A stretch of 64,000 bases of DNA from a virus, in the IMG/VR virus record IMGVR_UViG_3300030042_000123, positions 6,941 through 70,940 of that record. One strand, written 5' to 3'. The notes beneath the pieces were generated by a model, which saw nothing but the letters and a program-made list of their open reading frames with translations, had not been told where the DNA came from and did not search any database. Of this stretch, positions 11,829-38,057 are shown piece after piece. How positions within the stretch are numbered: position 1 is the stretch's first letter; every line of letters begins with the position of its first letter. The translations under genes and the position numbers were made by a program.

Positions 11829-12902
11829 TTACATGCCTTCAGCGGGAGCAGTCGTGATCGGTGCGGGACGCGACTTACGCGGCTGTCCAATCGGCTTTAC
11901 TGCACCGCCGCTCGGACCATTCTCGCCCATCACGTAGCCCATGAAGCGTTCCTTCATGAAACGTGGGTTGGATGCGCGTAGTGTGCTGCACAATCCCTCG
12001 GCGATGTTGCGCTTCTCATCGGGACCGACGCTCATGTTCTTGATTGCGTCTGCCAGAGCGATGAAATCCTTCTTGCTCATCGCGGAAAGCTTGTTGCCAG
12101 CTTCTTTACCCTGAGCCTGCGGAATTTCCTTCACGAACTTCTCAGCACTTTCGGAGTGCGGTGCGATGGTGTACTTCTGCTTGGTCGGTTCCTGTGCACC
12201 AGAACCCTGTTTGTTGCCCTCAGCCTCGCCCTGAGCCTGCGGCATCTTGGCCTTCTGCGGTGCCTTGGGGTTGCCGGATGGGTCACGGTCGGTGCTGAAA
12301 GCGTCGGAGCCAGAGGCGGCTTCCTTCTCTGCTTCAGGTTCCGCGTCGTCGGCGGGTTCGGCTGCGGCTTCAGCTTCAGTCTCTTCCTTGGCTTCAAAAT
12401 CGGGACCTTCGGACTCGGCTACAGCTTCGCCCTTGTCTTCACCAAGCTCAAGTTCGTGCTTGCCTTCGTCGGTAAATGCCTTCTCAGCAGGCGTGGCACC
12501 CAAGTCGATACCCAGAGCTTCGGCGGCGATTTCCATCGCGGCTGCCTGCTCATCCAAGCCCTTATAGGCTTGCTGGAGGGCGTCAGCCAGAATATCTGGC
12601 TGCTCTTCGGCGATACGGATGAACTTCTTGCCGTACTTTTGGGCGGCTGCAACGCGGATTTTGGCGGGAGCATCCTTGGCGATTCTCGCGAGACCGAGGT
12701 TGTGACGGAGGGCTTCCATGCTGTCAGCCTGACGAGCGGTCTTGGCGACAAGCTCGTCGAGGACCTTGGCGAACTTCGCCGGGGACTTCGCTGTTTCACG
12801 CATTTTCGCGTATTGAGCCACTTTTTCGGTCTTACGGGCTTCGCGGCGGGCTACAATAGCCTTGCGAACTGCCTCACGGTCTGCCTTCTTTACGTTTGCC
12901 AT
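11829..12902 (-). CDS. Putative internal head protein with K-X-A motifs
   Basis: Likely start ATG 12902 (RBS GAGAGG); coiled-coil N-terminus, acidic middle, KEA|A, KQG|S, KLS|A junctions; shares a 25-aa motif with 36591-38057. Confidence 0.6.
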   Translation of the reverse strand: MANVKKADREAVRKAIVARREARKTEKVAQYAKMRETAKSPAKFAKVLDELVAKTARQADSMEALRHNLGLARIAKDAPAKIRVAAAQKYGKKFIRIAEEQPDILADALQQAYKGLDEQAAAMEIAAEALGIDLGATPAEKAFTDEGKHELELGEDKGEAVAESEGPDFEAKEETEAEAAAEPADDAEPEAEKEAASGSDAFSTDRDPSGNPKAPQKAKMPQAQGEAEGNKQGSGAQEPTKQKYTIAPHSESAEKFVKEIPQAQGKEAGNKLSAMSKKDFIALADAIKNMSVGPDEKRNIAEGLCSTLRASNPRFMKERFMGYVMGENGPSGGAVKPIGQPRKSRPAPITTAPAEGM

Positions 12903-12976
12903 GGTGTTTCCCTCTCTACAATAGGTGTTTGGTAGGCGTGTTTTTCCAAGTATTCTGCGGCTAATCGTTCCATGGT

Positions 12977-15900
12977 TTATTCTCCAGAGACGGGGGTTTC
13001 CTTCATGGCGCGAGCCACGCTGAGTACCAAACCCTGCTTCGTCTTGGTGCCCCATGCCGTCTGCACACGATCTTTGTTCGACGGGTCACGTTTCAGGGAG
13101 CCCCACAGCATTTCGATCAGTGGGTGGTTCTCGTACTGATTCTGCACGTCGCGTTGGAGTCCGCCGTCGCCGGGTGCTGCCTGCTTCTCTTCGCTACCCT
13201 TACGCTTTGCGGGCGGCTTTGGCTGCTTGGCTTTAGCTGCGGGCTGATCGAGCACGCTCATGGCGGCATCGACCGCCGCGTTGGTGTCTTCCCACCAGAA
13301 CGGCTCGCTGAGCTTCTGATTGTCCTCATTGTAGACCTGAAGCTCCGCTCCGTCGCCGCCTTCTGTCGCTTGAATCCATAGACGGACGGTGCCCTTCATC
13401 GGAATGGCAGGGGCATAGGTGCCCTGTCCGCGAATCTCGGAGCCCACAAGGACATACGGACCCTGATACTGGTCGAACGCCTTGACTGTGCCGCCCAGTG
13501 CCTTCGCGATGGCGTGGTGCATCGGCCATGCTTCGGCGTCATCGGCTTCAGACTGGCTCATCTCGCCCGTGGCTTCCTTTTTATTCGGACCAAACGAATC
13601 GGCTTCCCGCTTGTGTTCTTTCCACTGTTCGAAATTCAGTTTGGTGTCGCCGTTGGCAACTTCATACTGCCAGTCTTTATGGTCAGTGTCCTCGGACGAA
13701 CTCGTTGGGCTGAACTTATCCGCTTCTTCTTTGTACATTTTCCAGTCCTCGAAATTAAGCTTCGTGTCGCCATTAGCGACCTCATACTGCCAGTCTTTGT
13801 AGTCGGTGTCCTCAGCGGAAGACTGAAGTGGAAGGTCCATCTGATTCGGATCAGGTTCGGCAGGCGGGGCAATCTCGCTGCCCTCGTCCATTTCGAACAG
13901 GTTGCCGCCGTACTGCAAGTTGACCTTGTTGCCATTCATCAGTTCTTCAACCATGTCCTCGATCTGGTAACGCTCGTGCCAGTAGACGTTACCGTCTTGG
14001 TCGCTCATGAGTTCGCCGGATGTCAGTGCTCCAATGTCCTCGGGGTTGACCATCTCCCAGCCATTGGTGAAGAAGTCCTCCATGAGTTCGAAGATATTCG
14101 GCTTGTTAATCATCTCGCCGATACCCTGCACATCGCTGAGCAGGTTGGCGGTGGGCTCCAGCGTGATGCCGTACTTGTTGTAGACGACCTTGACGTTGAA
14201 CCCCTCGTCTTCGCCAGACGTGGGCTGTTCAGTCGCCGCTACTTTGTCCTCGCTGCTGTGACGAGGTGGGATTCCCTCGTTAGCCAGATCGAGGTCTGAC
14301 TTTTCGGTGAGACCCAACTGTGCGGGGGTCTTGAGCTTGCCGCCGCGTTGCGGCATTGCGTTGATCTTGTCCGATGCGTCGGATGATTCATGTTCTTGCA
14401 TGTCCTTCTCCTCAGGATGATACCCGTAAAAGTCCATCCATTCCTTAATGTGTGGCTCATCGCCGCGACCCTTCGCCAGAGCCTCGTCAACCATCGACTG
14501 CATGTACGTCTGACCGTCCGTGGTCAATGGGTTCTCAAGGAAAATGTGGCAACCAGAGCAGTGCTCGGGTGCATCGGATTCTTCCTCGAAGAACGGCCCT
14601 TTCGGGTAGTTGTCCGAATCATACGAAGCCTCGTCCATCACGTTAGGCGGCGTCTTACCCTCCGCGTCCAGCGTGGCAGCAATTTCTGTCGCACACTTCT
14701 CGCACCACACGTCCGCTTGATAGATGTACGTGCCGTCGTTGGAACCACGGATACCACTGTTGGCACCCGGCTCGAACGCTTTCTTTTTCTTTCCAATTAC
14801 ACCAAGACCCCTCAGACGGGTTTTATCGGCTTCGCCGAACTCAGGTGTCTCAATGGGTACATCGGGCTGAGGTATAACTTCTTCGACACCAGCGGCTTCC
14901 AACAATTCCACATCGCCGGGATCAATGTAGTCGGCAAGGCCCTGTAATTCCATCAACTCTCCCTGACTGATCCGCTCGGCGCGGAGTTCGCCTCGGAGGT
15001 ATTCCAAACGACCCTGAATTTCCGATGTCTCCTCCTCATCAAGCCACGCTTTCTTCGCCGAACCAGTCTTGGCGCATGGAGCTTTCGAGGCTTCCTGCAT
15101 ACTCATACCGCAACGCTTGCAGTGACCATCGGTGTCAGTGTCCAGATCGTGAGTGCTGATGTTAGTCAAGCGTGCTCCGTCCGCTTCCTTCTCGATAGAA
15201 GCCTCAATCACGTTCTCTGCCTTCGTCGCCAGCGATGACGGGATGGGGAGGGTGGAAGACTCATGGAAATTTTCTTGGCAAGAGTCGTCGCCGTTGTCAA
15301 TCTGTTCGAGATCAAGATCGCCTTCGTCGCCCATGTGGTGACCTACGTCAACAACCGACCACGTGGCTCCGCACGGCCCACAAACAATCCACCACTGCCC
15401 GTGCTCAAAGTACGGATTGCAGTTCTCGTGAATCTCGGTCTCGGGGTGCGTCTGTGCCAACTGTGCTACGCGAGCTTCCATCTCTGGCGTGTTCTGTTCG
15501 GTCAGCAATCCCGCACTCACCTTGTTGGGCGTCTCAGTAACACCGCCGCTTGATCTCTCGGTATGACCCTGCTCGGTATAGTTCGGGTCGTCGCCGACAA
15601 TTTCACGCAGGGCGTTCTCCGCGTCTTCACGATAGTCGTCGATGTCGCTCAGCGAGCCGTCCTCTTCGCGGCGGAAAGCGTACTCAAAATCCATCATGAG
15701 CTTGGAGCAGGCGATGTACTTGTCTTCGCCCTTGCCCGTGCGGGTGTAACGCTCGTTGAACACGTCCGCCAGCCCGCCCTCCTTCTTGCCTTCCATGAAA
15801 TACTCGAAGGCATCTTCGAGAATGCTTGCTGTTTTGCTGGTCATGTGCCACTTCTTTCCGGGAAGTTCGGGTACAACTGTCTTCCGCATTGGTTTCTCGT

Positions 15901-18883
15901 CTTCGGTCGTTGGTTGCTGACCCGGCAGAGCAACGGCCGTTCCGGGTGGTGGAGCTACTACTGTCTGTGGTGCGGCGGCAGGTGCGGCGGGACGTGCTGC
16001 GGGAGCCGCTGCCGCTGGAGCCGCTGTCTTCCTCGCAATAGTCATCGATACAACCTTCTCGCCTTCCTTCATGTACTTTTTCACGGCACGTTCGGCAGAA
16101 CCGTAGTCCACACCTGAAACCTGCTGTTCACGTTGCTGACCCTTGGGATCACGCAGGAGGACTTTCCATTTACCCGCTACCTTCGGTCCCGCCGTGCCTG
16201 ATGGGTACAGCTTACCGAGTGTATCATTCCAAACCTTTTCCTTCTGCGGACAATCGATCTTGTGGTGATTCGTGACCGACCCGCAGCACTCTAACGTCTT
16301 CAATGATGTCGCAATCTTTGGAGGAGCCCCAGCCGAGCCGCCTTCTTGATAAAATTCTTCACGCCACAGATCGCCTGCTCCGCGCACATCGTCCGACCCG
16401 CCCCCACGCCCAGCGAGTTCCGCAGCCTCTTTCGATCCTTGCGTGCGTCCATGAGGCAGGCGTCCAGTGTCACCCGGCGTAATGCTGGGACGAATCGCAT
16501 CCTGATCGGCGTTCACGAAGTCGTGCCCGATCATGCCTTCTTTTTCAAAGCCGGGGTCAGTCCACTCCGCACCCTCAGTTTCAAACTCTTGAAGCGTCAA
16601 TTGCTGCCCATCGTCTTTCATGACGGGTTGAGGTGTGTGCCCCTTGGCATACGGGATCATCGCTTCGACCGTGGGCTGAGGCTTCGTTGTGTCCTCACCG
16701 AAAGCGTTTGGAATCTCTCCCCACTCGTACCACATCTCCGTATTGTAAACCCACATGTGCTCCGTGGTCTCATCCGTCACATAAATAAACCAGTCCTCGG
16801 CGAGCACAACGCGCAATCCGGGAGCCGCGTACTGAGGACCTGCCGCGATAGGCTTAAAGCCGCCCTCACTGGGAAGCTTTTGAAGGGTGGGCTGCTCTTC
16901 ACCGTCCGCTTTCTTCAGGGTCTCATCAATGGACTCGCCACGACGAGCTTCCATCTTCTTGATTTTATCGCCGTACTTGCTTGCGTTCTTGTTCTCGGGG
17001 CAATCACAGCCCTCGCAGATGCAGTTCTTTTTCAGTCTATCGCAACCATCGCAGTATGGCTCCTGTACAGAAGATAAAATCTTGACCGTATTGTCAGCAT
17101 CACCCGTGCCTTGTTCCAGACGGATGTACTCGATAGTCGCATCGGTGCATGGCTGGCAGTAGCGAGTCTTGTATCCGTAAATCTCAAGCATGTGAGCGGC
17201 GGGGTTCGGACATCCGCCCGCCTTGTGACCCAGCGGGCACTCTTCCCACTCACAGGAGCATCGACCGAGGTCAGCCGCCGTGTGTTTGGAATTGTAATTC
17301 CGCAGAGCTTGGAAAGCCGTATCGTAATTGCGCTTCGCCGCCTGCCACTCGGGGGTAGCTTTGGTAGCATCGGGCGTCATGCCCGTTGGCCCTTTGGGGA
17401 ACTTCTTGAGTTCCTTGCTGAAACGATCTACGTCCTGTTCCAGCTTCGTCTGTTCCTCATTGATCGGTCTGTCGGCGTGTCCGTAAGCAGCTTCCTTCGG
17501 ATCGTTGATACCCTTGACAATGCCGTGCTCCCAGTTCTTGCCGCACTTGTTGCACTTGGCGGTCTCGAAGTCCGTGGGCATCAAGCCGTAATCGTCAGAG
17601 CCGCAATGGGGGCACTTCGGCTTTTCCGCAGCCGTGCGACAGTTGGAGCAGGAGTTCACGTTGAAAGCAATCTTCGGAGCCGAGCAACGGCAGGTCTGAA
17701 CGCTACCACACTTGCACACTTGCTTGCGGTGGTGGTTCGAGGCCGTCTTATCGCCTCGTGTCTCACCGTCCAGCAAATCTGCTTTGTTCGGGCAATAGCA
17801 GCCGTTCTCATCGTTGCCGCATTGCGGACAATACTCGGATGCGATGCACCCAGCAGCCTTAAACTTGACCTTCTCGGACGAAGCCTTGGCGGGACGTGCC
17901 TTCGCCTTTGGCGGCGGTGGGAACATGTGTTGCAACAGGTCCGCAAGCTGGTAGGAGTTGCCCAGTTGAGTCTTGTTCTCGTAAACGAAGTCGCGGAGCA
18001 AGCCGCCGATCTTGTCTCGGTACTGCTTCAGGGAATCGAAGCTCAAACCTGTGCGGTGAATCCACTCTTGAGTCAGGTCGCTGATCTTAACGTCGCCACT
18101 CTCGGTTTGCTGAGCTTGATCCCAGTAAATCTTGAGCAGGGCGGCGTAATTGGGGGCGGACTTCGGAGTCTCCTTGGTCTTCACCCACGCTTCGAACTTC
18201 TCGATAAACTGATTGATGTCGCGGTCGGACTCGGACTGACCGACGCCCGGGGTTGTAGCGTGCTCTTCGGTGTCGAGGATGTTGTAGGTCTCGCCCTCTT
18301 CTCCGGGTTGTTCCATGCTCATCTCTTCGGGGCGAATCAAAGCAATCGCGTCCTGCTTCGCGTGATCCTTGGCGTAGTAAATGAACGTGCTCTTGAGGTA
18401 GGAACTGACCTGCTCAGCGATGGGCTTCTTCTGGGTTTCCTTGTCGAAGCCTTTGACCTTCTCGGCAAAGTTTTCCAGCAGCTTCTTGCCGTTCTTCTGC
18501 GTCCGCTCGAACAGAAGGGAGACGACCGCTCGGTAGATCACCTCATCCTGAATGTCTTGGTCTTGGGTTACGGAGTTGAGAATCGACGAGTAGATTTTGG
18601 TGAGGTACTTCGCCCAGTCCATCTTGGGGTCAGTGGGTAACCCCGCCTGCTCGATGAGCGAGTTGACAATCGCGGTCAGGTCTTTGTTGAAGGCAAACTT
18701 CAGGAGGGACGCGAAATGCATCCAAGCCCCGGCAATCGGGGAGAAGTTTGCGGGGGTTGAACACGGTCGCCCCTGAAGGTCGGCCAATTTGAAGGCACAC
18801 TCTCCCGCTATTTTCAGCGTAGACGAAATGCGGTAGGCTTTTCCATCAACACCGTACACGATTTGTCCTGCGTTAAGGCGCAC
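12977..18883 (-). CDS. 1968-aa modular polyprotein (putative virion cargo) with K-X-A linkers, many Cys-rich modules and a sigma-like N-terminal module
   Basis: Single long ORF with GTG start and GAGG RBS; short unrelated modules separated by KTA/KEA/KVA/KIA/KKA/KQA. Confidence 0.75.
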   Translation of the reverse strand: MRLNAGQIVYGVDGKAYRISSTLKIAGECAFKLADLQGRPCSTPANFSPIAGAWMHFASLLKFAFNKDLTAIVNSLIEQAGLPTDPKMDWAKYLTKIYSSILNSVTQDQDIQDEVIYRAVVSLLFERTQKNGKKLLENFAEKVKGFDKETQKKPIAEQVSSYLKSTFIYYAKDHAKQDAIALIRPEEMSMEQPGEEGETYNILDTEEHATTPGVGQSESDRDINQFIEKFEAWVKTKETPKSAPNYAALLKIYWDQAQQTESGDVKISDLTQEWIHRTGLSFDSLKQYRDKIGGLLRDFVYENKTQLGNSYQLADLLQHMFPPPPKAKARPAKASSEKVKFKAAGCIASEYCPQCGNDENGCYCPNKADLLDGETRGDKTASNHHRKQVCKCGSVQTCRCSAPKIAFNVNSCSNCRTAAEKPKCPHCGSDDYGLMPTDFETAKCNKCGKNWEHGIVKGINDPKEAAYGHADRPINEEQTKLEQDVDRFSKELKKFPKGPTGMTPDATKATPEWQAAKRNYDTAFQALRNYNSKHTAADLGRCSCEWEECPLGHKAGGCPNPAAHMLEIYGYKTRYCQPCTDATIEYIRLEQGTGDADNTVKILSSVQEPYCDGCDRLKKNCICEGCDCPENKNASKYGDKIKKMEARRGESIDETLKKADGEEQPTLQKLPSEGGFKPIAAGPQYAAPGLRVVLAEDWFIYVTDETTEHMWVYNTEMWYEWGEIPNAFGEDTTKPQPTVEAMIPYAKGHTPQPVMKDDGQQLTLQEFETEGAEWTDPGFEKEGMIGHDFVNADQDAIRPSITPGDTGRLPHGRTQGSKEAAELAGRGGGSDDVRGAGDLWREEFYQEGGSAGAPPKIATSLKTLECCGSVTNHHKIDCPQKEKVWNDTLGKLYPSGTAGPKVAGKWKVLLRDPKGQQREQQVSGVDYGSAERAVKKYMKEGEKVVSMTIARKTAAPAAAAPAARPAAPAAAPQTVVAPPPGTAVALPGQQPTTEDEKPMRKTVVPELPGKKWHMTSKTASILEDAFEYFMEGKKEGGLADVFNERYTRTGKGEDKYIACSKLMMDFEYAFRREEDGSLSDIDDYREDAENALREIVGDDPNYTEQGHTERSSGGVTETPNKVSAGLLTEQNTPEMEARVAQLAQTHPETEIHENCNPYFEHGQWWIVCGPCGATWSVVDVGHHMGDEGDLDLEQIDNGDDSCQENFHESSTLPIPSSLATKAENVIEASIEKEADGARLTNISTHDLDTDTDGHCKRCGMSMQEASKAPCAKTGSAKKAWLDEEETSEIQGRLEYLRGELRAERISQGELMELQGLADYIDPGDVELLEAAGVEEVIPQPDVPIETPEFGEADKTRLRGLGVIGKKKKAFEPGANSGIRGSNDGTYIYQADVWCEKCATEIAATLDAEGKTPPNVMDEASYDSDNYPKGPFFEEESDAPEHCSGCHIFLENPLTTDGQTYMQSMVDEALAKGRGDEPHIKEWMDFYGYHPEEKDMQEHESSDASDKINAMPQRGGKLKTPAQLGLTEKSDLDLANEGIPPRHSSEDKVAATEQPTSGEDEGFNVKVVYNKYGITLEPTANLLSDVQGIGEMINKPNIFELMEDFFTNGWEMVNPEDIGALTSGELMSDQDGNVYWHERYQIEDMVEELMNGNKVNLQYGGNLFEMDEGSEIAPPAEPDPNQMDLPLQSSAEDTDYKDWQYEVANGDTKLNFEDWKMYKEEADKFSPTSSSEDTDHKDWQYEVANGDTKLNFEQWKEHKREADSFGPNKKEATGEMSQSEADDAEAWPMHHAIAKALGGTVKAFDQYQGPYVLVGSEIRGQGTYAPAIPMKGTVRLWIQATEGGDGAELQVYNEDNQKLSEPFWWEDTNAAVDAAMSVLDQPAAKAKQPKPPAKRKGSEEKQAAPGDGGLQRDVQNQYENHPLIEMLWGSLKRDPSNKDRVQTAWGTKTKQGLVLSVARAMKETPVSGE
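13590..13815 (-). repeat. Tandem 120-nt (40-aa) repeat inside the polyprotein
   Basis: EDTDYKDWQYEVANGDTKLNFEDWK... / EDTDHKDWQYEVANGDTKLNFEQWK... Confidence 0.9.
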
Positions 18884-19484
18884 AGTTCACCTCTCGCCGA
18901 CCCTTGTTCCAAGGGACTCTACCTTGAGCAGCCGACTTCATTTTCTGTATCGTGCTTTCGGAGTGCCTTCTGTCTTTGAACCTAGTACCGAGGTTTGCTA
19001 TTAGCTGCTCTTTTGAAGTTACACAGGGCATTTCACTAAGGGTTTTGCTGATCTTATCGCAAACATCTTGGGGAACAGTGCGCCCAAACATCGACTTGCT
19101 AATCTTGTCACGAACAGCTTGGGGGATGGGCTTTCTGTACTGGTGATGGTTTACCCCGCTCATCTTCCGACGAGTCTCTTCATTGGGGATTAACCCGTCA
19201 CCCCCCATCGTCAGGTTATAGCCGTTCTCAGGTTTATGGGATTGATGCAGGATAATGAAGAAGGTCTCCATTTTACGGAGTTCTTCCTTGGTCTTGGCTT
19301 GGTGCAAGACCTCGACGGTAAAAGCCTCTGCACCGTACTTGCGGATGGCGTTGTGAAAGTAGAATGGACTACCCCTGCGGGCTCTGTACCGATGCTCTTT
19401 CCACCGACGATTAACGCTGGAGCCTTCCCACTTGCCGATGTAGACCTTGCCGTTGACCGTATTTGTAATGCGGTAAACAAGCAT
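18873..19484 (-). CDS. GIY-YIG homing endonuclease with NUMOD3-like repeats
   Basis: LVYRITNTVNGKVYIG, FHNAIRKYG, GYNLTMGGDG, HSESTIQKM. Confidence 0.88.
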   Translation of the reverse strand: MLVYRITNTVNGKVYIGKWEGSSVNRRWKEHRYRARRGSPFYFHNAIRKYGAEAFTVEVLHQAKTKEELRKMETFFIILHQSHKPENGYNLTMGGDGLIPNEETRRKMSGVNHHQYRKPIPQAVRDKISKSMFGRTVPQDVCDKISKTLSEMPCVTSKEQLIANLGTRFKDRRHSESTIQKMKSAAQGRVPWNKGRREVNCAP

Positions 19485-19499
19485 TGCCAGACTCCAAAG

Positions 19500-19733
19500 T
19501 TAGTCAGTGATCGGATCGTTAGGGTCGCCGCCAGTCTTTTCGTCTTCCTTCAGGACTGACTCAAGGGTCTTCATGTAGTCTTCGTGATCCTCGAACGCCT
19601 GAGGATCGTGGGACTGCCCTGCGGCTGAGTCCTTTGCGTCCTTCTGTGCTACCTTGAGGCCTAGACGACCGAGTTCGCCCTTGTAGAGCGAGTTCATTGC
19701 TGATGCGTCTGCTGCTGCGATTTTCTTTGCCAT
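19500..19733 (-). CDS. Small acidic putative head protein
   Basis: Likely start ATG 19733 (RBS GGAG); begins MAKKIA|AADA (K-X-A). Confidence 0.55.
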   Translation of the reverse strand: MAKKIAAADASAMNSLYKGELGRLGLKVAQKDAKDSAAGQSHDPQAFEDHEDYMKTLESVLKEDEKTGGDPNDPITD

Positions 19734-19828
19734 TTTAAGCTCCGAAGGGAGGAATACCCCCTGCAAAGGGGGACTGTAGTTGAGTTTCGTTATACTTGCG
19801 AAGGTACGCTGTCTCATGACGACCTTCC

Positions 19829-21673
19829 TTAAACGCTAAACATTACAACAGGCACGACTGGCTCTCCCCCGAACGAGAATGGCGTAATCGTGCCCAGAGT
19901 GGTGGGCATAACCCCACCGCCTGTGATTGCATTTGCGGCTGAACCAAATCGGACGGGTGGGACTGGAGACGAGTACGGAAACGACCATTGATTCAGGAGG
20001 TTCGCCATCGAAGAGGAATCCTGATGGCTGAACACGGAACCGCCGTTTGAGGCATCGTAACTCCCCCACGCGAACCAGTAAATTCCCGAAGGGAGAGTGA
20101 CAGGCCCAACCGCAACCTGTTTAGTCCATTGGCTGTGATTTGACGTGTCGAGAAAATTTGCTCCCGCGTCAATCAGTTTCGTATTTCCATCCGCTGAGTA
20201 GAGAGCACACGTCATCCAACCGCCAGCACCCGAACCTGTGACCGTGGTAGCCGTGACGTGGGATATGACAAACTCAACTTCGAGAATGACTTGGATTACA
20301 TTCACGACATTGTTAGTGAGAATGCTTCCGCTAGTCCCAACTGTGCTATAGTCCTGACCGCCAAGAAACCAACCCAGTCCTGCTGTCTGGAACTTTGACC
20401 CACCACCTGCCGCCGTTTCCCACGCGGGTACACCTGCAACCACCGTCAATACTTGACCAGAAGTACCGATTGGTAGTCGCTCGGGGCCGAGCACGGCTGG
20501 GGAACCAGTCAAGCCCTCGTAGATCATATCCCCAACGGTGGTCATGGGGTTTGCAAAACCTGAACTCGGAACCGTAGCAACGAATTCAGTTCCGTTGAAA
20601 GTAAGGACAGCCCCAGTCGGTATTCCTGATGGTGGGGCGGTGATGGTGGTAGCAGTATTCATGGTAACGGCGGCGTTGGCTAGTGCCCGGCCTGCCAACG
20701 ACCCACCGCCCAATGTAATCGACGAGACAGCGAGAATGTTACCCACAGTAACAGCACCCGGACCAATCGTTGTCCATGAGCTTCCAACGACCCAAACTAC
20801 GTTAGCAGCTTGAGCACCATTGGCTAGTGTGATCGTTCCAGCAATAGCCTGAGTGATTGTCGAAGCGGTCGCGTAGAATACGAACACAGCGTTCGGACTG
20901 CCCTGTGCATCAAGAATGATTGGTGTGCTGATTGCAAGGCTCGATCCACTCTTATAATTGCCCGCATAGTAGGTGCCAGTCGGAGCACCCGCTGAATGCT
21001 GGGTGCCCATGTCTGCTGTAGTGAGTGTCTGGATGAAGGTCAAACCTTCGTAATGAGTGATTGCCGTGTTGAGGTCCGTCAAGGCTTGAGATGCGACAGG
21101 CGAGATAACTGTCGTAGGCGGTGTCAAAGTCCATGGCGGGGTGCCTGCGGTGATGGTTGTGCCTCCGACATTTCCACCGCTGATGACCGTGCCCGCACCA
21201 TCCGAGTTCGTGACCGTGGTTCCCAGTACGGCGTAAGTTGCTGCCGTAGCTAATTGCGTGGTGACGGGAGACGAAGGGCCTGAGGGAAGGGACACATCGG
21301 ACAACGAAGCCAAAGTCGTAGTAGCCCAAGCTCCGTTATTAAAAATGTAAAGCGCGTTTCCGCTGCCCACAGCCCAACCATTTTTCGGTGTGTAGTATTC
21401 CCATTCACCGCTTGGAACCGCTGGATTGTCGGTTGACCAGTAGGCGAGATTGTTAGCTTGAGCCGACCACACACCCGTAGGACTGCTTCCAATGATGTAG
21501 GAGTCTCCGTTGGCGGGGGACACGGGCGGTGTGTTCAACCCGACGCTGATAACGTTCGACTCAACGAGTGCCTGAAGCCCGCGCAGCAACGCTTCGCCTG
21601 CGGTGTAATAGCCGTCACCGAGGGCTGCGCTAACGAATAACTGCGGAATTTTGGGGCCGAAGTGGATGCTCAT
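19829..21673 (-). CDS. Tail-fibre-like protein: DUF2793-like N-terminus + DUF3494 ice-binding-like domain
   Basis: N-term TPPVSPANGDSYIIGSSPTGVWSAQANNLAYW...PKNGW (DUF2793-like); DUF3494 at about 20640-21256; LPIGTSGQVLTVVAGVPAWE fibre segment. Confidence 0.8.
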   Translation of the reverse strand: MSIHFGPKIPQLFVSAALGDGYYTAGEALLRGLQALVESNVISVGLNTPPVSPANGDSYIIGSSPTGVWSAQANNLAYWSTDNPAVPSGEWEYYTPKNGWAVGSGNALYIFNNGAWATTTLASLSDVSLPSGPSSPVTTQLATAATYAVLGTTVTNSDGAGTVISGGNVGGTTITAGTPPWTLTPPTTVISPVASQALTDLNTAITHYEGLTFIQTLTTADMGTQHSAGAPTGTYYAGNYKSGSSLAISTPIILDAQGSPNAVFVFYATASTITQAIAGTITLANGAQAANVVWVVGSSWTTIGPGAVTVGNILAVSSITLGGGSLAGRALANAAVTMNTATTITAPPSGIPTGAVLTFNGTEFVATVPSSGFANPMTTVGDMIYEGLTGSPAVLGPERLPIGTSGQVLTVVAGVPAWETAAGGGSKFQTAGLGWFLGGQDYSTVGTSGSILTNNVVNVIQVILEVEFVISHVTATTVTGSGAGGWMTCALYSADGNTKLIDAGANFLDTSNHSQWTKQVAVGPVTLPSGIYWFAWGSYDASNGGSVFSHQDSSSMANLLNQWSFPYSSPVPPVRFGSAANAITGGGVMPTTLGTITPFSFGGEPVVPVVMFSV

Positions 21674-21712
21674 GGTTTAACCGTCCTCAAGTAAGAATTC
21701 GTTAGTCCTCGT

Positions 21713-22426
21713 TTAGACTACAGTGATGGTCGCGGTAACGGGGGCGAGACCAGCAATCGGGAGACCCAAATCGGCGTTTGTAGCGGTCGCAGGATAGCCA
21801 TTCATCGTCAGGGTGATGGTGCCTAAAGCCAATCCGCTGCCCCAACTCACCCCCCACTGCTGACCCCATCCGGGTCCAAACACTATATCCAAAATGTATA
21901 CGCCACTCGGTCCTAAGAGCATCGTATTAAGTCCATTTGTATCCGTTATGACGACTTGTGGTACACCCTCAGTCAACCACAACAAAAATACGGAGTTAGG
22001 TACTGGTGAGCCAGCGATGTCATTAACAATGTTAGGATCGGCGACCAGCGACATGAACGGGCTTACAACGTCACCAGTGGGAATGTAGGTGGCAACCAGT
22101 GCAAATCCGGGTACAAATAGGGCGCTGACTGGCGACCCCGATAAAAATGCTACAAAAGGCGGGTTGGGCACGTGATGAACGACTTGAACGAAGCCCTGAG
22201 GGTCTATGGCTTGAACCAGATATATCAGGTAGCGGTTGTTGGTTCCGTCGAACGCCCACGATTGCACGGTCTGAAGTGACCCGTCCACGTAGATGCTCAG
22301 GTCGCGAGCGGGATTGAATGCACCAAGAGGTCCAATCTGCATGAACGGGCCAAAGTACGGCGAGTTCACTACAAGCTGAATTCTATTCGGGTACGGCCCG
22401 TTCGTGAGTGCCTGAACTATTTGCAC
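21713..22426 (-). CDS. Putative virion structural protein
   Basis: Beta-rich ORF within the structural module; no family recognised. Confidence 0.55.
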   Translation of the reverse strand: MQIVQALTNGPYPNRIQLVVNSPYFGPFMQIGPLGAFNPARDLSIYVDGSLQTVQSWAFDGTNNRYLIYLVQAIDPQGFVQVVHHVPNPPFVAFLSGSPVSALFVPGFALVATYIPTGDVVSPFMSLVADPNIVNDIAGSPVPNSVFLLWLTEGVPQVVITDTNGLNTMLLGPSGVYILDIVFGPGWGQQWGVSWGSGLALGTITLTMNGYPATATNADLGLPIAGLAPVTATITVV

Positions 22427-22430
22427 GTGG

Positions 22431-23490: not shown

Positions 23491-23829
23491 TCAGTAGCCT
23501 AGCACGGAGTCATATCCCTCTCCGTAAAACACTATCTTCAAACGACTTAGACCGTCCCCGATGTAACCCAGTGAGATGAGGTTACGGACGACCCTCATTT
23601 TAACCAGCTTCCTGAACTCGGAAACTGTTTGATTGTCCTTCAGGCGATTGCAGTATTCGCAGGCGGGCAGGAGGTTCCACTCGGCGTTCGGTCCACCTCG
23701 GCTGGCGGGCTTTGCATGGTCTACGGTGAGGTCACAAAGCTCGGCGGGAGCGTAACCACAGTACCAGCACCGCCCATCGCACTTGCGAACGGTCCTCCAC
23801 CACTGGGTTTTGCGGGGCGTGCGGGGCAT
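23491..23829 (-). CDS. HNH endonuclease
   Basis: CWYCG...LTVDHAKPASRGGPNAEWNLLPACEYCNRLK. Confidence 0.9.
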   Translation of the reverse strand: MPRTPRKTQWWRTVRKCDGRCWYCGYAPAELCDLTVDHAKPASRGGPNAEWNLLPACEYCNRLKDNQTVSEFRKLVKMRVVRNLISLGYIGDGLSRLKIVFYGEGYDSVLGY

Positions 23830-24308
23830 TACAGGTCTTTAGGCTTGAGACCGAGGCCGAGACGTTTACGCACCACCGGATCAGTGAGGTCCTCGCCGTC
23901 TTTGAGACCCATCCGCTCACGGAACTCCGGGTCATCCAGACTGACCTCGGTCGGCTGAGCTTTCTTCCGCTTCTGCTTAATCTCTTCCTGTGTCGGTTTT
24001 TGCGGTGTTGATGGGGTTTTTGGTAGGTCGGGCGTGAGCTTGGGATGGGAAAGCTTGAGCAACCTCGCGCACTCGGTGGGGTCAATCGGTCGCGGTTGGG
24101 GCTTCTCGATCACTTCTTCGGCGGATTTGTCCTTGACAAAGGCGCTCATACCCAGCGAGGACTGCTTCAGGGTCTTGACGATCTGTCCATTGCGGTACAC
24201 CGTGAGGCGCTGGGCGGTCGTATCGTGGACGAGAATGTCCCCGGCGTTGACTCGGAAGCTAAATTGAACAAAATTGATCGGACTCTTGGCTACGTAGCTA
24301 CGTTGCAT
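23829..24308 (-). CDS. Hypothetical protein
   Basis: RBS GGAGG; stop/start overlap with neighbours. Confidence 0.6.
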   Translation of the reverse strand: MQRSYVAKSPINFVQFSFRVNAGDILVHDTTAQRLTVYRNGQIVKTLKQSSLGMSAFVKDKSAEEVIEKPQPRPIDPTECARLLKLSHPKLTPDLPKTPSTPQKPTQEEIKQKRKKAQPTEVSLDDPEFRERMGLKDGEDLTDPVVRKRLGLGLKPKDL

Positions 24309-24702
24309 CCTGCCTCCACTTACTTAAATACTCAATCGCCTTGTAAAATAAGGCCACATCATCTTTGAATGTGCCCAAAATGCGATTACACCGTCCGCAC
24401 AGTAAATCTCGATTGATGCCCGTAGCGTGGTCGTGGTCTACGGCTAAAAGTATTACTTTTCCTCTTCGGGTTATTGTTTCTGGTTGCCCGCACAAAGCAC
24501 ACAGACCTTTTTGCTTTTCGAATTTTTGATTGTAGCCATCCAGCGACAATCCGAACTTTTTCTTCAGATAATATCGTTTCATGGTCTGTGGGTAGTAAAC
24601 GCGATTGCGCTGATAATATTGCTTAGCGGATTCAGCGCACGCTTCGCACTTTGTTTTCCCGGGACGAGCGGGTCTAGTGCATGAACCACTGGCACATTGC
24701 AT
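24298..24702 (-). CDS. Endonuclease VII-like homing endonuclease
   Basis: KQKGLCALCG...LAVDHDHATGINRDLLCGRCNRILG. Confidence 0.88.
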   Translation of the reverse strand: MQCASGSCTRPARPGKTKCEACAESAKQYYQRNRVYYPQTMKRYYLKKKFGLSLDGYNQKFEKQKGLCALCGQPETITRRGKVILLAVDHDHATGINRDLLCGRCNRILGTFKDDVALFYKAIEYLSKWRQDAT

Positions 24703-24814: not shown

Positions 24815-25774
24815 TTAGTTCTCGCCGTAGTTGGCGGTCGCGTTGAAGCGGCCATTGACTGTGAGACGCTGGACACCTGATGGGTTGAACACCAAGAAGC
24901 CCAAGTTCTCGAAGATGCTGAAACCGATCTGACGGAGGTCAGGACGGTCGGCAGACATCACGGTCAACGGAATACGTTCTGGGATTACGCCGAGGAACTC
25001 AGCGTCCGCCAGAATGTAGATGCAGCCGTAGCCGACCTTACGAGACTGGAGGAGCGTTGCGCCCCAGAGATAGCCCATGACGCCCGTCTTCAACAGCTTG
25101 CGCTGTGTTTCACGGTCGATGTTTTGCTGCGTCCACTTCAACAGGTCCGTGTAGTCACGCGGATTGAAGAAGATGAAAGCAACCGACAGATCGTGGCGTG
25201 CAACCTGACCAAAGCCGTCTGCCAACGAGTTGATGTCGATGGGAGCGTTGATGGCGATGTCGGGGTTGTAAACCGGATCGTTGGGTGGGTGGCCGACTGC
25301 GCCTGCCGCAACACCGTCAAACAGGTTGAACACGTAACCATCTTCCGCTGCGCCTACTTCAGCCTTTGCGAGGTTGAGTGAACGAGCGACGAGATCGAAA
25401 CGACGTTCCTTGATCTGCGTGATCGGAATCATCGGGTTGGACACGATTTCAAACGTCGGAACCGTGACGCGCTTTGGCTTGGTGACGCGCACGATGTCGC
25501 CGCCTTCTTCACCTACCACAAAGGCCTCAACGAAGGACGAGCCCGGGGTGGAACCCACGGTCATCGCGCTTACATCAAATTCCTTATCGTAGATGGGCAG
25601 AGCGCCATCGGGAAGAGTTTCAACCATAAGAGCCTTGCGAGCAATGCTCATATAGTCACGACGACGACGGAGGGACGGTCCCAACGAAGCCGCAAGTTTC
25701 TGACGACCACCCGCAGTCTTGAGCAACTGTCCGAGCATAGCCGTCTGCTGTTGTGTACGAGAAAGGTTTGCCAT
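24815..25774 (-). CDS. Major capsid protein (probable HK97 fold)
   Basis: Start ATG 25774 with AAGGAG RBS; QKLAASL...DYMSIARKALMVETLPDGALPIYDKE, IPITQIKERRFDLVAR, AAEDGYVF; follows scaffold/protease/decoration genes and precedes a strong terminator. Confidence 0.8.
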   Translation of the reverse strand: MANLSRTQQQTAMLGQLLKTAGGRQKLAASLGPSLRRRRDYMSIARKALMVETLPDGALPIYDKEFDVSAMTVGSTPGSSFVEAFVVGEEGGDIVRVTKPKRVTVPTFEIVSNPMIPITQIKERRFDLVARSLNLAKAEVGAAEDGYVFNLFDGVAAGAVGHPPNDPVYNPDIAINAPIDINSLADGFGQVARHDLSVAFIFFNPRDYTDLLKWTQQNIDRETQRKLLKTGVMGYLWGATLLQSRKVGYGCIYILADAEFLGVIPERIPLTVMSADRPDLRQIGFSIFENLGFLVFNPSGVQRLTVNGRFNATANYGEN

Positions 25775-25791
25775 GTTGTTCTTTTTCTCCT

Positions 25792-26361: not shown

Positions 26362-26528
26362 TTTGGTTTCTCCAGTTTTGTGTACGAGAGTTTGATTATT
26401 CTTCCCAATCCGGCCTTTTGGGGGCTCAGGACTATAGGTTGAACGACTCTCACATAAGACATGCGTATCAAATTTTTTCACTAACTAGCGATTTTTGTCG
26501 ATTTGACCGTATTAAGTAGAGAGGTTTT

Positions 26529-27882: not shown

Positions 27883-27894
27883 TATGCCGTCCCC

Positions 27895-28485
27895 TTATGC
27901 GTAGAAGAATAGTACATCGGAAGTTGCCGACGTGGAACCCGTTCGGGTCGTGGTGCAAGCAATGGTGATGCCCGTGCTCATAGCGATACCGAGATCAATC
28001 GCCTGAACTAGCCCAGCACCGTTCGTGCCTGATGCTGGAGCGGGGACAGGAATCACAAAGTCTGGAGTCGTAGTACCTACTGTGACGTTCGTGCTGAGCT
28101 TGTTGAAGACCTGAACGTAACAAAGGGCCGACCCGTTGTTCATGATTGTCCAGCCGTAAATTTGCCCGGCCGAACCCTTAACCTGCTCTTTAGTGCTCGT
28201 TAATGAAGCAGAGTAGGGTAGACCCATACCACCCGAGGTTTCCGGGACTTGCTGCACAGCAACAGTTGCGGCAATACTCACGGGTTGAGTTGTCTGCCAG
28301 AAAGTTCCTGTGACTGCAACGGAGCCCGAGACGGCAACCGTCCACGATCCTGATTGTGTGACCGCGACCGTACCTGATACAGAAATGGCGTTCTCAACGT
28401 TGACGCCTATATTGCCTGAGCCGTCCTGATTGGTCGCGAGGGCGAATACGCCGCCTGCTTCGAGAATGATTGTGCTGAGTGACAT
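27895..28485 (-). CDS. Putative virion/fibre protein
   Basis: AAGGAG RBS; Thr/Val/Ser-rich repeats (VSGTVAVTQSG, VSGSVAVTG) and C-terminal VKGSAGQIYGW..N...YVQVFN beta domain. Confidence 0.55.
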   Translation of the reverse strand: MSLSTIILEAGGVFALATNQDGSGNIGVNVENAISVSGTVAVTQSGSWTVAVSGSVAVTGTFWQTTQPVSIAATVAVQQVPETSGGMGLPYSASLTSTKEQVKGSAGQIYGWTIMNNGSALCYVQVFNKLSTNVTVGTTTPDFVIPVPAPASGTNGAGLVQAIDLGIAMSTGITIACTTTRTGSTSATSDVLFFYA

Positions 28486-28602
28486 GATGGACTCCTTACT
28501 GAAGTGACCCGTAAGCAGTGAATTAGTAACTCAGGAGGAATTTCCCAATGGGATTGGGTTATCGGGGAAATTTCACTTGCGATTTTCTAAGCCGCAGAAA
28601 AT

Positions 28603-28628
28603 AAAGCCTCAGTTTTATCCGAGGCTTT
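28603..28628. terminator. Terminator-like hairpin
   Basis: AAAGCCTC-N10-GAGGCTTT downstream of 28651-28848. Confidence 0.55.
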
Positions 28629-28650
28629 GAATTTCACGACGTTGTTGAGA

Positions 28651-28848
28651 TTATGAAATCAGCTTTGGGTAGCTTTTCGAGCCTCGATAGAGAGCGCACG
28701 CTTTTATCAACAGAGCGTTGACTTCCTCAGAGACGGGCTCGTAGTGGGTGTCCCAGTAACCCAGTCCATAGCCTCTCCAGCACAGCAGACTGATGGTGTG
28801 GCTTAGCTTGGGGCGACCGCATTTGACACACCGGGGCTCAAAGACCAT
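28651..28848 (-). CDS. Small Cys-containing hypothetical protein, leaderless
   Basis: GGTATAAT 4 nt before ATG; CVKCG...H motif. Confidence 0.55.
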   Translation of the reverse strand: MVFEPRCVKCGRPKLSHTISLLCWRGYGLGYWDTHYEPVSEEVNALLIKACALYRGSKSYPKLIS

Positions 28849-28879
28849 CCCCCATTATACCACTACTCAAATCTTTAGT

Positions 28880-29416
28880 ATGGCGACACCTCCAGCGAAA
28901 ATTCTAGCAGTGCAGATGCAGACCCCAGAGGTTATCCAACTGCCTACAGGCGGCGGGACGGAACAAACTGGATACCGATGCATCCTCGCCGTCTCTTCCA
29001 TCTTAGCTAAAGTTCAAACCACAGTCCTATTTGGCCGCGACCTGTACGGCATTGGTCTGATGAGCAACTTTCCTGAAGAACAAATCTTCCCGCGTTTCGT
29101 GAATTCGTTCAAGGACAGACCGTGGAAGTGGGCGCAGTTGAACGCGATTCCCAATCCCGCCGTCCCATACCCACAGCAGCTTCCTCCCGCGCAGCCTCCC
29201 GTCGCCACGGGTGTCATCACCGTTCTGAACTCCGGTTGGGATGCCATGTTCGGGTACTGGATCGAGTTCAAGGGCAACTACTGGCTGCATTTTCCCCTGT
29301 TTAAGGATTGGGCGAGCCTCGTTATTCGTGACGGCCCAAACTACAAAGGGTTCCAGCCATCCGTGGGCTCAGGACGAGGCGGCTCGGGGTCTGGATCGGG
29401 AAATTGTAATTGCTAG
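28880..29416 (+). CDS. Hypothetical protein
   Basis: Long ORF, likely start MATPP at 28880; followed by a terminator. Confidence 0.6.
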   Translation: MATPPAKILAVQMQTPEVIQLPTGGGTEQTGYRCILAVSSILAKVQTTVLFGRDLYGIGLMSNFPEEQIFPRFVNSFKDRPWKWAQLNAIPNPAVPYPQQLPPAQPPVATGVITVLNSGWDAMFGYWIEFKGNYWLHFPLFKDWASLVIRDGPNYKGFQPSVGSGRGGSGSGSGNCNC

Positions 29417-29422
29417 AAAATG

Positions 29423-29449
29423 AAGGGGCCGCTTTTAGGCGACCCCTTT
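29423..29449. terminator. Bidirectional terminator-like hairpin between convergent genes
   Basis: AAGGGG...CCCCTT with A/T runs on both flanks. Confidence 0.6.
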
Positions 29450-29473
29450 GGTGATGCACTCGGTTGAGATTGA

Positions 29474-36589: not shown

Positions 36590-36590
36590 C

Positions 36591-38057
36591 TTATTCAGCC
36601 GAAGCTACCAGCGCCAAGCCCCTGAAAGAAGACTTCTTATTACCCTTCTCCCGGACCTTCGCAGCCGCTTCTTCGGACTCTTCCTGCATGACCTGCTTGT
36701 TCAAGGTCTTGACGGCCTCATCAGCCATCGCACCTGCGCGGAAGATACTCTCTACAAACTCGCGAACTGGACGGCTATCGTTCACCGTGCAGATCGACTT
36801 GGCGTCAAGGTAGGTCTGTTTTAGTTCCTGACCCAGCCTTTCCGCCTCCTTTACAGCTTTTTGAGCCGTCATCTCGCCAGCTAATTTGATCGGGAGCGTC
36901 GTCGTAGGACGATCCAGATGGGCGGGAGCTTCATCAATCTTGCTGTGTGCTTCGCCGATTTCTGGTGTACGTCCACCAGATTCGGTCACATCGCCTGTTG
37001 ACTGATCCCACGAGAAGAAACCAGCGGCGGCGAACTTTGCGATGACCTGATGAGCGGCTCGGAGAGCGCCCTTCTTGTCACCCTTGTTGTAGCTGGCCCA
37101 CGCCACGGCGTAAGGGTTGTCTACGTTCTCGTTCTTGAGTGCCTTCACCTGATCTTCACGACCCGGAGGAGCCACAGCGACCTTCTCGGCTGCCACGAAC
37201 CTCAGACCACCGAAGGATGCTTCCTTCTTGTCGTCCTTCTTTTCGTCCTTCTTGCCGAACGGAGGAGCTTGCTTACCACCGAAATCGCCGCCCTTCTTTG
37301 AAGAGGCGACTACGCCGGGAGCGGCAGGAGCAGGAGCGGCCTCAACTGGGCGCTGTTGGAGCTTCCCAGCCAGATTCTCAACGGCTGCCTGTACGTCCTT
37401 GTCCTGTTCGAAACCTTCGAGGCTGGTCAGCTTCTTCACCAGATCGGCGAGGAAGTCGGACGGCAGCTTGGCGAAGAGAGCATCAAGCGATCCACCGCCA
37501 GCGGCGGGGGCTGCGGGTGCGGCGGCAGGGGGAGCGACTGGAGGAGCGTCGGGCTGTGCTTCCTTTTTCTTTGCGGCAAGACGGGGAACTTCGGCTTTTT
37601 CAGGAGCCTTGGGGTTGCCCTGTTCGTCACGGTCAGTCGTGTATGCGTCATTGCCAGCGGCGGATGTCTTCTCATCGGAAGCCATCTGCGGCTGGGCGGC
37701 GGGAGCCTGTACTGGTGCCTTCTGAGTTACTTGTGCGGGACGTTGTTCCCTGCGCTTGGTTGCGATCATATCTACCTCATTCTTGGCTTGACGTGCCACT
37801 TCAGGCAGAACGGCATCGTCGAAATAATCTTCGACACTCATTGCGCCTTCGGACTGCATCTGGTCTGGCTGGCTGTGAAGCAGCGTGTCCAAATGCTTTA
37901 CGGCTTGTTCCAACTGCTGGTCGTTCTTACCTTCGGCTTGAAGAGCATTGAGGACGGATTTCCCGATGTTAACCGCATCCTGCGCCGTCTCAACGGACAA
38001 GAGAATGGTTGACTTCTTTGTCTGTGCCGCTTTGCGTTGTTCCATCAACTTGCTCAT
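36591..38057 (-). CDS. Putative internal head protein with K-X-A linkers
   Basis: KEA|Q, KEA|S, KVA|VAPPGREDQVKALK..DNPYAVAWASYNK, KGA|L, KFA|A, KLA|G; shares a motif with 11829-12902. Confidence 0.6.
   Translation of the reverse strand: MSKLMEQRKAAQTKKSTILLSVETAQDAVNIGKSVLNALQAEGKNDQQLEQAVKHLDTLLHSQPDQMQSEGAMSVEDYFDDAVLPEVARQAKNEVDMIATKRREQRPAQVTQKAPVQAPAAQPQMASDEKTSAAGNDAYTTDRDEQGNPKAPEKAEVPRLAAKKKEAQPDAPPVAPPAAAPAAPAAGGGSLDALFAKLPSDFLADLVKKLTSLEGFEQDKDVQAAVENLAGKLQQRPVEAAPAPAAPGVVASSKKGGDFGGKQAPPFGKKDEKKDDKKEASFGGLRFVAAEKVAVAPPGREDQVKALKNENVDNPYAVAWASYNKGDKKGALRAAHQVIAKFAAAGFFSWDQSTGDVTESGGRTPEIGEAHSKIDEAPAHLDRPTTTLPIKLAGEMTAQKAVKEAERLGQELKQTYLDAKSICTVNDSRPVREFVESIFRAGAMADEAVKTLNKQVMQEESEEAAAKVREKGNKKSSFRGLALVASAE

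Follow-up and report, generated by a model that had tools for sequence, protein, structure and literature searches.

Basic-x-alanine as the probable prohead-protease motif, and candidate cassette polyproteins, in a jumbo phage related to Tunturi_5 and phage G

The subject of this analysis is the head and tail gene module of a jumbo myophage, which lies on the minus strand between 11.8 and 42.6 kb of a 64,000-nucleotide stretch of viral DNA (from IMG/VR record IMGVR_UViG_3300030042_000123; the whole stretch is called the window, and is itself part of a 120-kb virus contig). Within this module, the tripeptide Lys-x-Ala (K-x-A) is over-represented only in the prohead protease, a scaffold-like protein and the internal head proteins. 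We consider it quite probable that [K/R]-x-Ala is the cleavage motif of the prohead protease, and nearly as probable that the complete scheme set out below is right, in which the motif, processing within the prohead and polyproteins built from cassettes go together. The chances are about even that a giant ORF of 1968 aa is cut at multiple sites into cassettes that stay in the head, and the delivery of its pieces into the host is a tentative idea that we regard as doubtful.

Sequence comparison identifies the window phage as kin of the Tunturiibacter phage Tunturi_5 (309 kb, Acidobacteriota host) and as more distant kin of Bacillus phage G. The order of genes (internal protein, protease, scaffold-like protein ... 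major capsid protein) is the same in the window and in Tunturi_5. The proteins at issue are the following, with an arrow marking each candidate cut:

32299-33201, minus strand: prohead (head maturation) protease, 300 aa; the true start Met is at 33201, and the open frame reaches 33255
30101-32299, minus strand: scaffold-like protein, 732 aa, with 22 K-x-A; sits between the protease and the capsid protein
24815-25774, minus strand: major capsid protein (MCP), 319 aa; phrog_2522, E 4e-43
12977-18883, minus strand: multi-module giant ORF, 1968 aa, a chain of cassettes and candidate cargo polyprotein
11829-12902, minus strand: head-associated protein, 357 aa, leader MANVKKA↓, with a small protein fused at the C-terminus
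19500-19733, minus strand: 77-aa protein, leader MAKKIA↓, second site KVA↓; homologues in four related loci
33228-34883, minus strand: internal head protein, 551 aa, leader MNPLFRKKA↓, with 8 K-x-A; directly upstream of the protease
36591-38057, minus strand: head protein, 488 aa, leader MSKLMEQRKAA↓; homologue of Tunturi_5 gp328

Enrichment of K-x-A in head proteins

A sequence-only reading of the window had proposed that the protease cuts after K-x-A, and had named seven head ORFs in which the motif recurs. Every site that it listed exists, in the window ORFs as well as in the MCP (LLKTA↓GG) and in the protease (FTKIA↓N, RKSA↓D, AKIA↓S). When residues were shuffled within 20-aa blocks, a null that keeps the local composition, the seven ORFs were found to hold 78 K-x-A against 50.6 expected (z 4.5), and the motif ranked second, behind CxxC, among 1200 residue-pair patterns at spacing 0-2. 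For the remaining 112 ORFs of the 120-kb contig, the count is 106 and the expectation 103 (z 0.3, rank 439). Because the earlier reading had picked its ORFs by the motif, a second test used proteins chosen by homology. A scan of IMG/VR with the protease yielded 78 related loci (57-97% protease identity), and the families of the protease, the scaffold-like protein and three internal head proteins, reduced to 80% identity, made up the independent set. In these proteins K-x-A was counted 1365 times where 851 were expected (z 22; second of 1200 once more, after CxxC), compared to 449 against 419 for the other ORFs of the same loci.

The excess is spread unevenly among the families, with z values of 14.6 for the scaffold-like protein (592 K-x-A vs 351), 10.8 for the protease, 8.9 for the 551-aa protein (228 vs 131), 5.6 for the giant ORF, 5.1 for the 488-aa protein (241 vs 184) and 1.9 for the tail sheath. 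The window copies of the scaffold-like and 551-aa proteins are enriched in their own right (22 vs 11.2 by composition, and 8 vs 3.6, respectively). Two other ORFs on the earlier list of motif-punctuated proteins show no excess taken alone, namely the open frame 11829-13055 (7 vs 6.5) and 36591-38057 (9 vs 8.2); Tunturi_5 gp328, the homologue of the latter, has 19 K-x-A against 8.8 expected. Position within the protein is also distinctive, since a K-x-A within 11 residues of the start is found in six of the seven head ORFs but in only about 5 of the other 112.

The enrichment is specific for both direction and spacing. The reversed or respaced pairs AxK, KA, AK and KxxA are flat in the head homologues, and Lys/Ala-rich low complexity was thereby ruled out as the cause. 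Arginine can take the place of lysine, with RxA also being enriched in the head homologues (481 vs 330, z 8.8). The x-x-E motifs gave no comparable signal in these proteins (AxE z -0.9, SxE -1.5, GxE -2.2 and LxE flat, against 22.8 for KxA), with IxE slightly enriched (z 3.7). The Lys and Ala codons at K-x-A sites follow overall usage, and since the site codons mirror ordinary usage the signal lies at the level of protein; a motif in the DNA was ruled out on the same ground.

The protease and its family

The protease of the window begins with a 47-residue leader (MPFTKIA at its start) that holds three K-x-A (K5-I-A7, K-S-A and K-S-A), and a KIA-KIA lies near the C-terminus; the candidate sites read FTKIA↓N, KSA↓S, RKSA↓D and GKIAKIA↓S. 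An alignment of 44 unique homologues together with Tunturi_5 gp331 and phage G gp19 gives the real start as M-x-F-x-K-x-A-N, with the Lys and Ala almost invariant and I, T, V, Y or F in the middle. Two more K-x-A precede the catalytic core, and one or two occur near the C-terminus, followed by Ser. Even in phage G gp19, at less than 30% identity, the core is preceded by VKIA, VKTA and VKIA and followed by EKVA↓S and LKIA↓S; among 45 ORFs of phage G, this one has the greatest K-x-A excess.

When 1.8 billion representatives were searched with a profile, the size of the family came out at no less than 1420 clusters (at 50% identity). Besides gp331 and gp19, its members in cultured phages are the homologous proteases Bxz1 gp95, Alice gp90, Rhodococcus phage E3 gp77 and those of BcepSauron and jumbo Erwinia phages. 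Among the 150 best family representatives, 98 open with M-x-x-x-[K/R]-x-A-x-A, and 37 are without an N-terminal [K/R]-x-A. Most family members carry a C-terminal extension, and in the extensions of 99 of the best 150 K-x-A takes first rank among the 1200 patterns (329 vs 192, z 12.2), with RxA enriched as well (z 9.1). Because the motif is conserved family-wide, K-x-A is a property of a large protease family and is not special to the window phage; on this comparative evidence, it marks phage G gp19 and the fusion proteins of the cluster C phages as well.

In the PHROGs collection, the frame 32299-33255 matches phrog_18299, 'head maturation protease' (E 6e-15). An AlphaFold2 (AF2) model of the protease, built from 27 homologues, has a pLDDT of 62 overall and 75-93 in the core. 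Its best matches among 48,161 PDB chains were T4 gp21 (5jbl; Z 7.0, rmsd 3.6 over 126 aligned residues) and the varicella-zoster virus (VZV) protease (1vzv, Z 6.3), followed at lower scores by the HCMV (8j3s, Z 4.8) and KSHV (1fl1, Z 3.7) enzymes. The top three Foldseek rows were all 5jbl, but with E of 0.04-0.3. Four positions stand out as conserved among 115 diverse family members, namely H57 (99%), S63 (97%), H111 (93%) and S169 in the sequence L-S-M-G (91%).

Two further observations concern this protease. A zinc-ribbon-like insert (C-x-x-C ... C-x-H) within the catalytic domain is kept from the window protein through phage G to Alice. In Alice, a cluster C mycobacteriophage, gp90 is a protein of 1511 aa (L081 3784-8319) with the homologous protease domain at its N-terminus, followed by a tail of 1200 aa that is rich in K-x-A (19 vs 8.8 expected), with the motif standing between the later domains; the MCP of the same phage, gp92, has K-Q-A-K-L-A just ahead of the conserved core.

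Capsid protein, scaffold and leader-bearing proteins

The MCP is 71% identical to Tunturi_5 gp334 and 35% identical to phage G gp27 (PDB 6wkk). Its candidate maturation site is L-L-K19-T-A21↓G22-G (nucleotides 25712-25720), which is invariant in the relatives of the clade as LLKTA↓GG and reads LLKSA↓AG in Tunturi_5. The deposited chain of 6wkk is near full length, and the entry gives no mature N-terminus for gp27. No match to the phage G portal or to other phage G head proteins was found in the 120-kb contig.

The scaffold-like protein opens with MANQTKSKLA, KAA and KQA↓ and ends in a conserved tail, ...DIATALFGDDE, that is preceded by KSA and KTA; both the N- and the C-terminal K-x-A motifs are conserved in related loci. 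A near copy of this tail turns up elsewhere in the module, as an observation read directly from the sequence:

29474-29788, minus strand: 104-aa ORF, ending ...PPRKKA↓FYGPDEISRAVFGDDE

After the K-K-A, the end of this ORF reads ...AVFGDDE, vs ...ALFGDDE in the scaffold tail, and this end may act as a transferable tag for capsid targeting, to be taken off by the protease.

The short leaders of the head proteins (MANVKKA, MAKKIA, MANQTKSKLA, MNPLFRKKA, MSKLMEQRKAA, and MPFTKIA of the protease) are conserved in relatives. In the 77-aa protein, the homologues from the four related loci keep both the start M-x-(x)-K-I-A and a K-[VIL]-A about 25 residues further on. The head proteins encoded at 11829-12902 and 36591-38057 have a 31-aa segment in common. 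At the position of the 551-aa gene, relatives encode polyproteins of up to 1998 aa that carry modules of the window's 1968-aa ORF.

A model for processing within the prohead

Assemblin-fold enzymes read a P3-x-P1 motif, which is (L/I)-x-E in T4, (S/A/G)-x-E in phiKZ and (V/L/I)-x-A↓S in the herpesviruses, and since these enzymes read P3-x-P1 the basic-x-Ala motif fits their grammar. The cut would most likely fall after the Ala, with a basic P3, a free P2, Ala at P1, and mostly Ala, Ser or Asp at P1'. We infer the scissile bond, the cleavage itself and the retention of the pieces in the head from the sequences. In the proposed sequence of events, the protease would trim its own N- and C-terminal extensions, chop the scaffold-like protein into small pieces and take a 21-residue leader off the capsid protein; short N-terminal leaders of the form M-x(3-9)-K-x-A would be taken off the internal head proteins, and these would also be cut wherever a K-x-A linker is exposed. 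Two proteins, the 1968-aa ORF and the counterpart encoded upstream of the protease, would be polyproteins, each with a conserved N-terminal domain and then a variable string of cassettes. Several of the cassettes would be whole proteins, encoded by free-standing genes elsewhere, that are gained, lost and swapped at K-x-A junctions.

The earlier claim that the protease cuts after K-x-A fares well as far as the motif's occurrence at the protease termini, in the scaffold-like protein and in the leaders is concerned. It needs amending in two respects, in that Arg can probably replace Lys and not every K-x-A would be a site. It is very unlikely, in our judgement, that K-x-A is not cut at all and instead reflects the composition or structure of linkers rich in Lys and Ala, or serves for binding or targeting to the portal, to DNA or to the inside of the capsid. 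Both residues are indeed abundant in these proteins, and a targeting signal could equally well sit at the N-terminus; yet the enrichment reaches z 22 despite shuffles that keep local composition, while the reverse and other spacings are flat. Moreover, the protease termini, the scaffold and the MCP leader make up the classic substrate set of a prohead protease, and Ala at P1 within a P3-x-P1 grammar is what related assemblins use.

The giant ORF as a chain of cassettes

The 1968-aa ORF consists of a conserved N-terminal domain of ~340 aa and then about 15 short cassettes, among them Zn ribbons, acidic segments and a duplicated 35-aa repeat. Its K-x-A begin at residues 24, 32, 62, 241, 342, 379, 404, 463, 632, 657, 818, 856, 901, 952, 1017, 1232, 1277, 1367, 1396, 1547, 1769 and 1900, and the junctions best backed by comparison are those at K342, K379, K463, K632, K657, K818, K856, K901, K1017, K1232, K1277, K1769 and K1900. 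Five related genomes have counterparts at this position, of 2005, 1970, 1761, 1270 and 1368 aa, and what all orthologues have in common is confined to the first ~340 residues. Outside the Tunturi_5-like soil clade, no giant cassette ORF of this kind was seen. The sequence-only reading had described the ORF as a chain of short modules joined at the motif, and comparison with relatives bears this out, both through indels the size of single units and through modules that recur elsewhere. One of its proposed boundaries is doubtful, namely KFA↓F at residue 64. KIA(24), KLA(32) and KFA(62) fall within predicted strands or helix and are not conserved in distant orthologues, and because of this the last of them is probably not a site.

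Pairwise alignment with the two closest orthologues (L095 and L096) reveals indels that equal exactly one unit from K-x-A to K-x-A, at residues 1235-1279, 859-903 and 345-381, and further insertions relative to these orthologues begin or end at a K-x-A site. Modules of the giant ORF also recur in other head proteins of relatives, mostly in the large protein upstream of the protease, and one of them is carried by Tunturi_5 gp328. A Zn-ribbon module occurs in 14 distinct contexts, and in 11 of them K-[T/E]-A comes after it; the motif persists despite insertions of 1-4 residues before it, with the sequence beyond being unrelated. Similarly, a 25-aa module begins directly after K-x-A in two unrelated contexts. 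Over all head proteins, stretches of local homology end at K-x-A 289 times, against 149 at random positions (z 13), and start there 222 times, against the same 149.

These comparisons bear on a more conservative account, which we consider improbable without dismissing it, in which the protease does cut at the motif but takes off N-terminal leaders or propeptides alone, in the manner of phiKZ and SPN3US. N-terminal propeptides are also what is mostly removed in T4, phiKZ and SPN3US, the nearest systems with experiments. The giant ORF would then stay one multi-domain head protein, its internal K-x-A being mostly protected or background. Such an account has a precedent in SPN3US, where every identified cleavage, save the self-cleavage of the protease, gives an N-terminal propeptide (PMC10052503), and it accords with the finding that no more than about one in three K-x-A of the 1968-aa ORF is above expectation and that some lie within predicted secondary structure. 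It has more difficulty with the one-unit indels and with the K-x-A kept at module ends across indels, which argue for selection on the internal junctions, and with the two cassettes, described below, that are whole independent proteins.

One portion of the cassette string looks like a recent change. A tandem duplicate of a ~35-residue module, D-W-Q-Y-E-V-A-N-G-D-T-K-L-N-F-E, at residues 1690-1767 (13583-13816), is absent from the two closest orthologues and matches phrog_11556 and phrog_23317; it has the look of a cassette inserted recently, with a conserved K-E-A site immediately downstream.

The conserved N-terminal domain is harder to place. An AF2 model of residues 1-345 (17849-18883) has a pLDDT of 72 and gave no significant fold match (Foldseek E > 0.2, VIA Z < 6). 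Among the weak likenesses, all with Z < 6, residues 1-50 resemble the Tudor/KOW domains of UvrD/PcrA and CarD that bind RNA polymerase (RNAP), and residues 74-180 and 213-320 resemble sigma regions 2 and 4, with sigma factors taking 9 of the 50 top rows. An RNAP-binding theme for this domain is, on the strength of the model, a lead only.

Stand-alone homologues and the cargo question

The sequence-only reading had noted that some modules look like stand-alone small phage proteins. It was right on this point, because homologue searches returned whole free-standing proteins: the two modules tested (MSKKDFIALADAIK... and YIYQADVWCEKC...) are full-length small proteins elsewhere. For residues 1384-1490 of the giant ORF, full-length alignments were obtained with free-standing proteins of 105-135 aa (E to 6e-28), which are encoded in long arrays of small genes on the same strand. 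Arrays of this kind are typically found in the early or leading regions of mobile elements. The homologue lies beside DUF3560 in one locus (L082 6001-6333) and upstream of a Prim-Pol/AAA_25 replicase and a resolvase in another (L083 6001-6324). The second case is the head-associated protein at 11829-12902, in which a copy of a stand-alone protein of 65-75 aa is fused on after KEA↓ and makes up the last ~85 residues. There are 26 stand-alone homologues (E to 1e-12), and these start with MAMSKKDFIALADAIK where the module starts, the alignment running from their initiator Met. PHROGs profiles of small proteins also match residues 479-534 and the repeats at 1690-1767 (phrog_7560, phrog_11556 and phrog_23317; 61-98 aa, with no function assigned in PHROGs). 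Pfam searches with the whole ORFs and with ten modules gave sub-threshold matches only.

The stand-alone homologues matter for a further alternative, namely that the K-x-A-rich proteins are a disposable core or scaffold, cut to peptides that leave the capsid before packaging as in the case of T4 gp22, and hence are not cargo. The densest sites are in the scaffold-like protein (22 in 732 aa, and the highest family z, 14.6), and many segments of the K-x-A-rich proteins are acidic and of low complexity, much as this alternative would have it. Zn-ribbon cassettes, and modules with stand-alone homologues in arrays of small early-type genes, are ill-suited to the role of filler. Furthermore, the Tunturi_5 homologue of 36591-38057, gp328, is labelled 'DNA ejection protein'; this label, like 'virion structural protein' elsewhere in that genome, is a computational annotation only. 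On balance, we regard a disposable core as an unlikely description of these proteins.

A bolder proposal goes beyond retention of the pieces in the head. In this clade the capsid might serve to deliver a customisable set of small proteins, with genes that in other mobile elements are free-standing and expressed early being spliced in as cassettes, their products released inside the capsid by the protease at [K/R]-x-A and injected with the DNA, and the RNAP-binding-like N-terminal domain (Tudor-like and sigma2/sigma4-like) going along; the cleavage sites would be the points at which cassettes pass from phage to phage and from one polyprotein gene to the other. We put this forward as speculation, with the odds against it.

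Weighing the evidence

Several points count against the processing scheme, or limit how far it can be taken. The motif excess amounts to about 40% of K-x-A occurrences and roughly 60% are background, and because that fraction is expected by chance individual sites are uncertain. The z-scores overstate independence because the homologues share ancestry, and the 1968-aa ORF alone has only 22 K-x-A against 14.9 (z about 2). At the N-terminus, K-x-A might conceivably serve for targeting and not for cleavage. The scheme also falls short of full generality, in that the phage G MCP has no K-x-A anywhere and reads A-L-E-T-E-E-G-R at the aligned position. The window protease has no Pfam match at E <= 0.01 and no PDB match by sequence profile; because PHROGs does match it, we take it to belong to a recognised phage protease group outside Pfam S77/S21/S80. 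Its fold matches are weak (Z 6-7, under the comfort level of Z 8, for a model with pLDDT 62), but they agree with one another and with the PHROGs label. A literature search, which was not exhaustive, returned no proteomic or biochemical report of cleavage or virion location for the window phage or its relatives, no published K-x-A specificity or phage G processing, and no usable proteome of Bxz1, I3 or E3; the Tunturi paper is without proteomics, and the Myrna capsid paper does not mention cleavage.

Mobile nuclease genes in the module

A GIY-YIG homing endonuclease gene (18873-19484, minus strand; phrog_314, E 2e-36) lies between the 77-aa gene and the giant ORF. These two genes are adjacent in relatives, with the 77-aa gene directly preceding the giant ORF. 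In the window, the giant ORF starts with a GTG that overlaps the stop of the endonuclease gene, and it is without the ~20-residue N-terminus of its orthologues (MKLDATQAAAAKLSHL... or MKHAANILG...PKAAD...). Four small Cys-rich ORFs also lie within the structural module (23491-23829, 24298-24702, 34880-35335 and 38502-38936, all on the minus strand), and three of the four have a common D-H-D-H-x-T-G...L-C-x-x-C-N motif, typical of HNH or endonuclease VII-like homing nucleases. The structural module thus appears to be heavily colonised by mobile nuclease genes.

Comparison with known systems

The closest mechanistic parallel is phage T4, where gp21, an assemblin-fold protease, trims itself, degrades the scaffold and removes an N-terminal piece from the capsid protein; the same roles are proposed here. 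In the T4 system gp22, gp23, gp24 and the internal proteins IPI-III are processed by gp21, which clips from IPI-III a leader of ~10 residues (the capsid targeting sequence) that has the gp21 motif at its end and is similar to the leaders in the window. T4 differs in cutting after Glu, at (L/I)-x-E, whereas the window motif is basic-x-Ala, and the window protease is without a Pfam S77 match. Internal proteins in T4 are single and small, unlike the multi-cassette polyproteins of the window.

The phiKZ-like phages (with proteases phiKZ gp175 and SPN3US gp245, and also 201phi2-1) are jumbo myophages in which many head proteins are processed at a three-residue motif and in which the head carries a large cargo of protein, including inner-body and ejection proteins. 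Their motif is (S/A/G)-x-E or A-x-E and their cleavages mainly remove N-terminal propeptides, and the substrates form paralogous families, in contrast to the strings of unrelated cassettes in the window. No sequence relation was detectable between phiKZ-like proteins and those of the window. Within a propeptide the motif can be repeated, as in SPN3US gp53, which has several (PMC10052503).

The herpesvirus assemblins (VZV 1vzv, HCMV 8j3s and KSHV 1fl1) provide the second-best fold match (Z 6.3). They cleave both themselves and the scaffold, with Ala at P1 and Ser at P1', like the K-x-A↓S at the C-terminus of the proteases of the window family, but have a hydrophobic instead of a basic P3 and no polyprotein cargo, and the identity is about 11%. 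Among cultured phages of the same protease family, phage G gp19 and Tunturi_5 gp331 have terminal [K/R]-x-A and Alice gp90 is a protease-led, K-x-A-rich fusion; the likeness stops at the phage G capsid protein, which is without the motif, and no published cleavage specificity was found for family members. In concept only, picornavirus and retrovirus polyproteins are also similar, with one ORF holding units that are separate elsewhere and short sites for a virus protease. Processing in the window phage would take place inside the prohead of a DNA phage, and the units are apparent accessory cargo rather than a replication or structural core.

The known part of the scheme, then, is the head-maturation logic of T4 and phiKZ, and the modelled fold suggests that the protease belongs with gp21 and the assemblins. 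New with respect to that logic would be the basic-x-Ala specificity, the scale of the family, and cassette polyproteins as substrates, including whole small proteins exchanged at the sites.

Significance

If the scheme is true, basic-x-Ala specificity would be assigned to a family of at least 1420 clusters that reaches from soil Acidobacteriota phages to phage G and the widely used Bxz1-like mycobacteriophages, and the preference for Ala at P1 would tie these phage proteases to the herpesvirus assemblins. The boundaries of mature head proteins would become predictable from sequence in hundreds of jumbo-phage genomes. Since cultures exist of Tunturi 5, phage G and cluster C phages alike, the idea of delivery can be put to a direct test. 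Should it be correct, the cassette polyproteins would raise the possibility that small proteins which act early are loaded into the virion beforehand.

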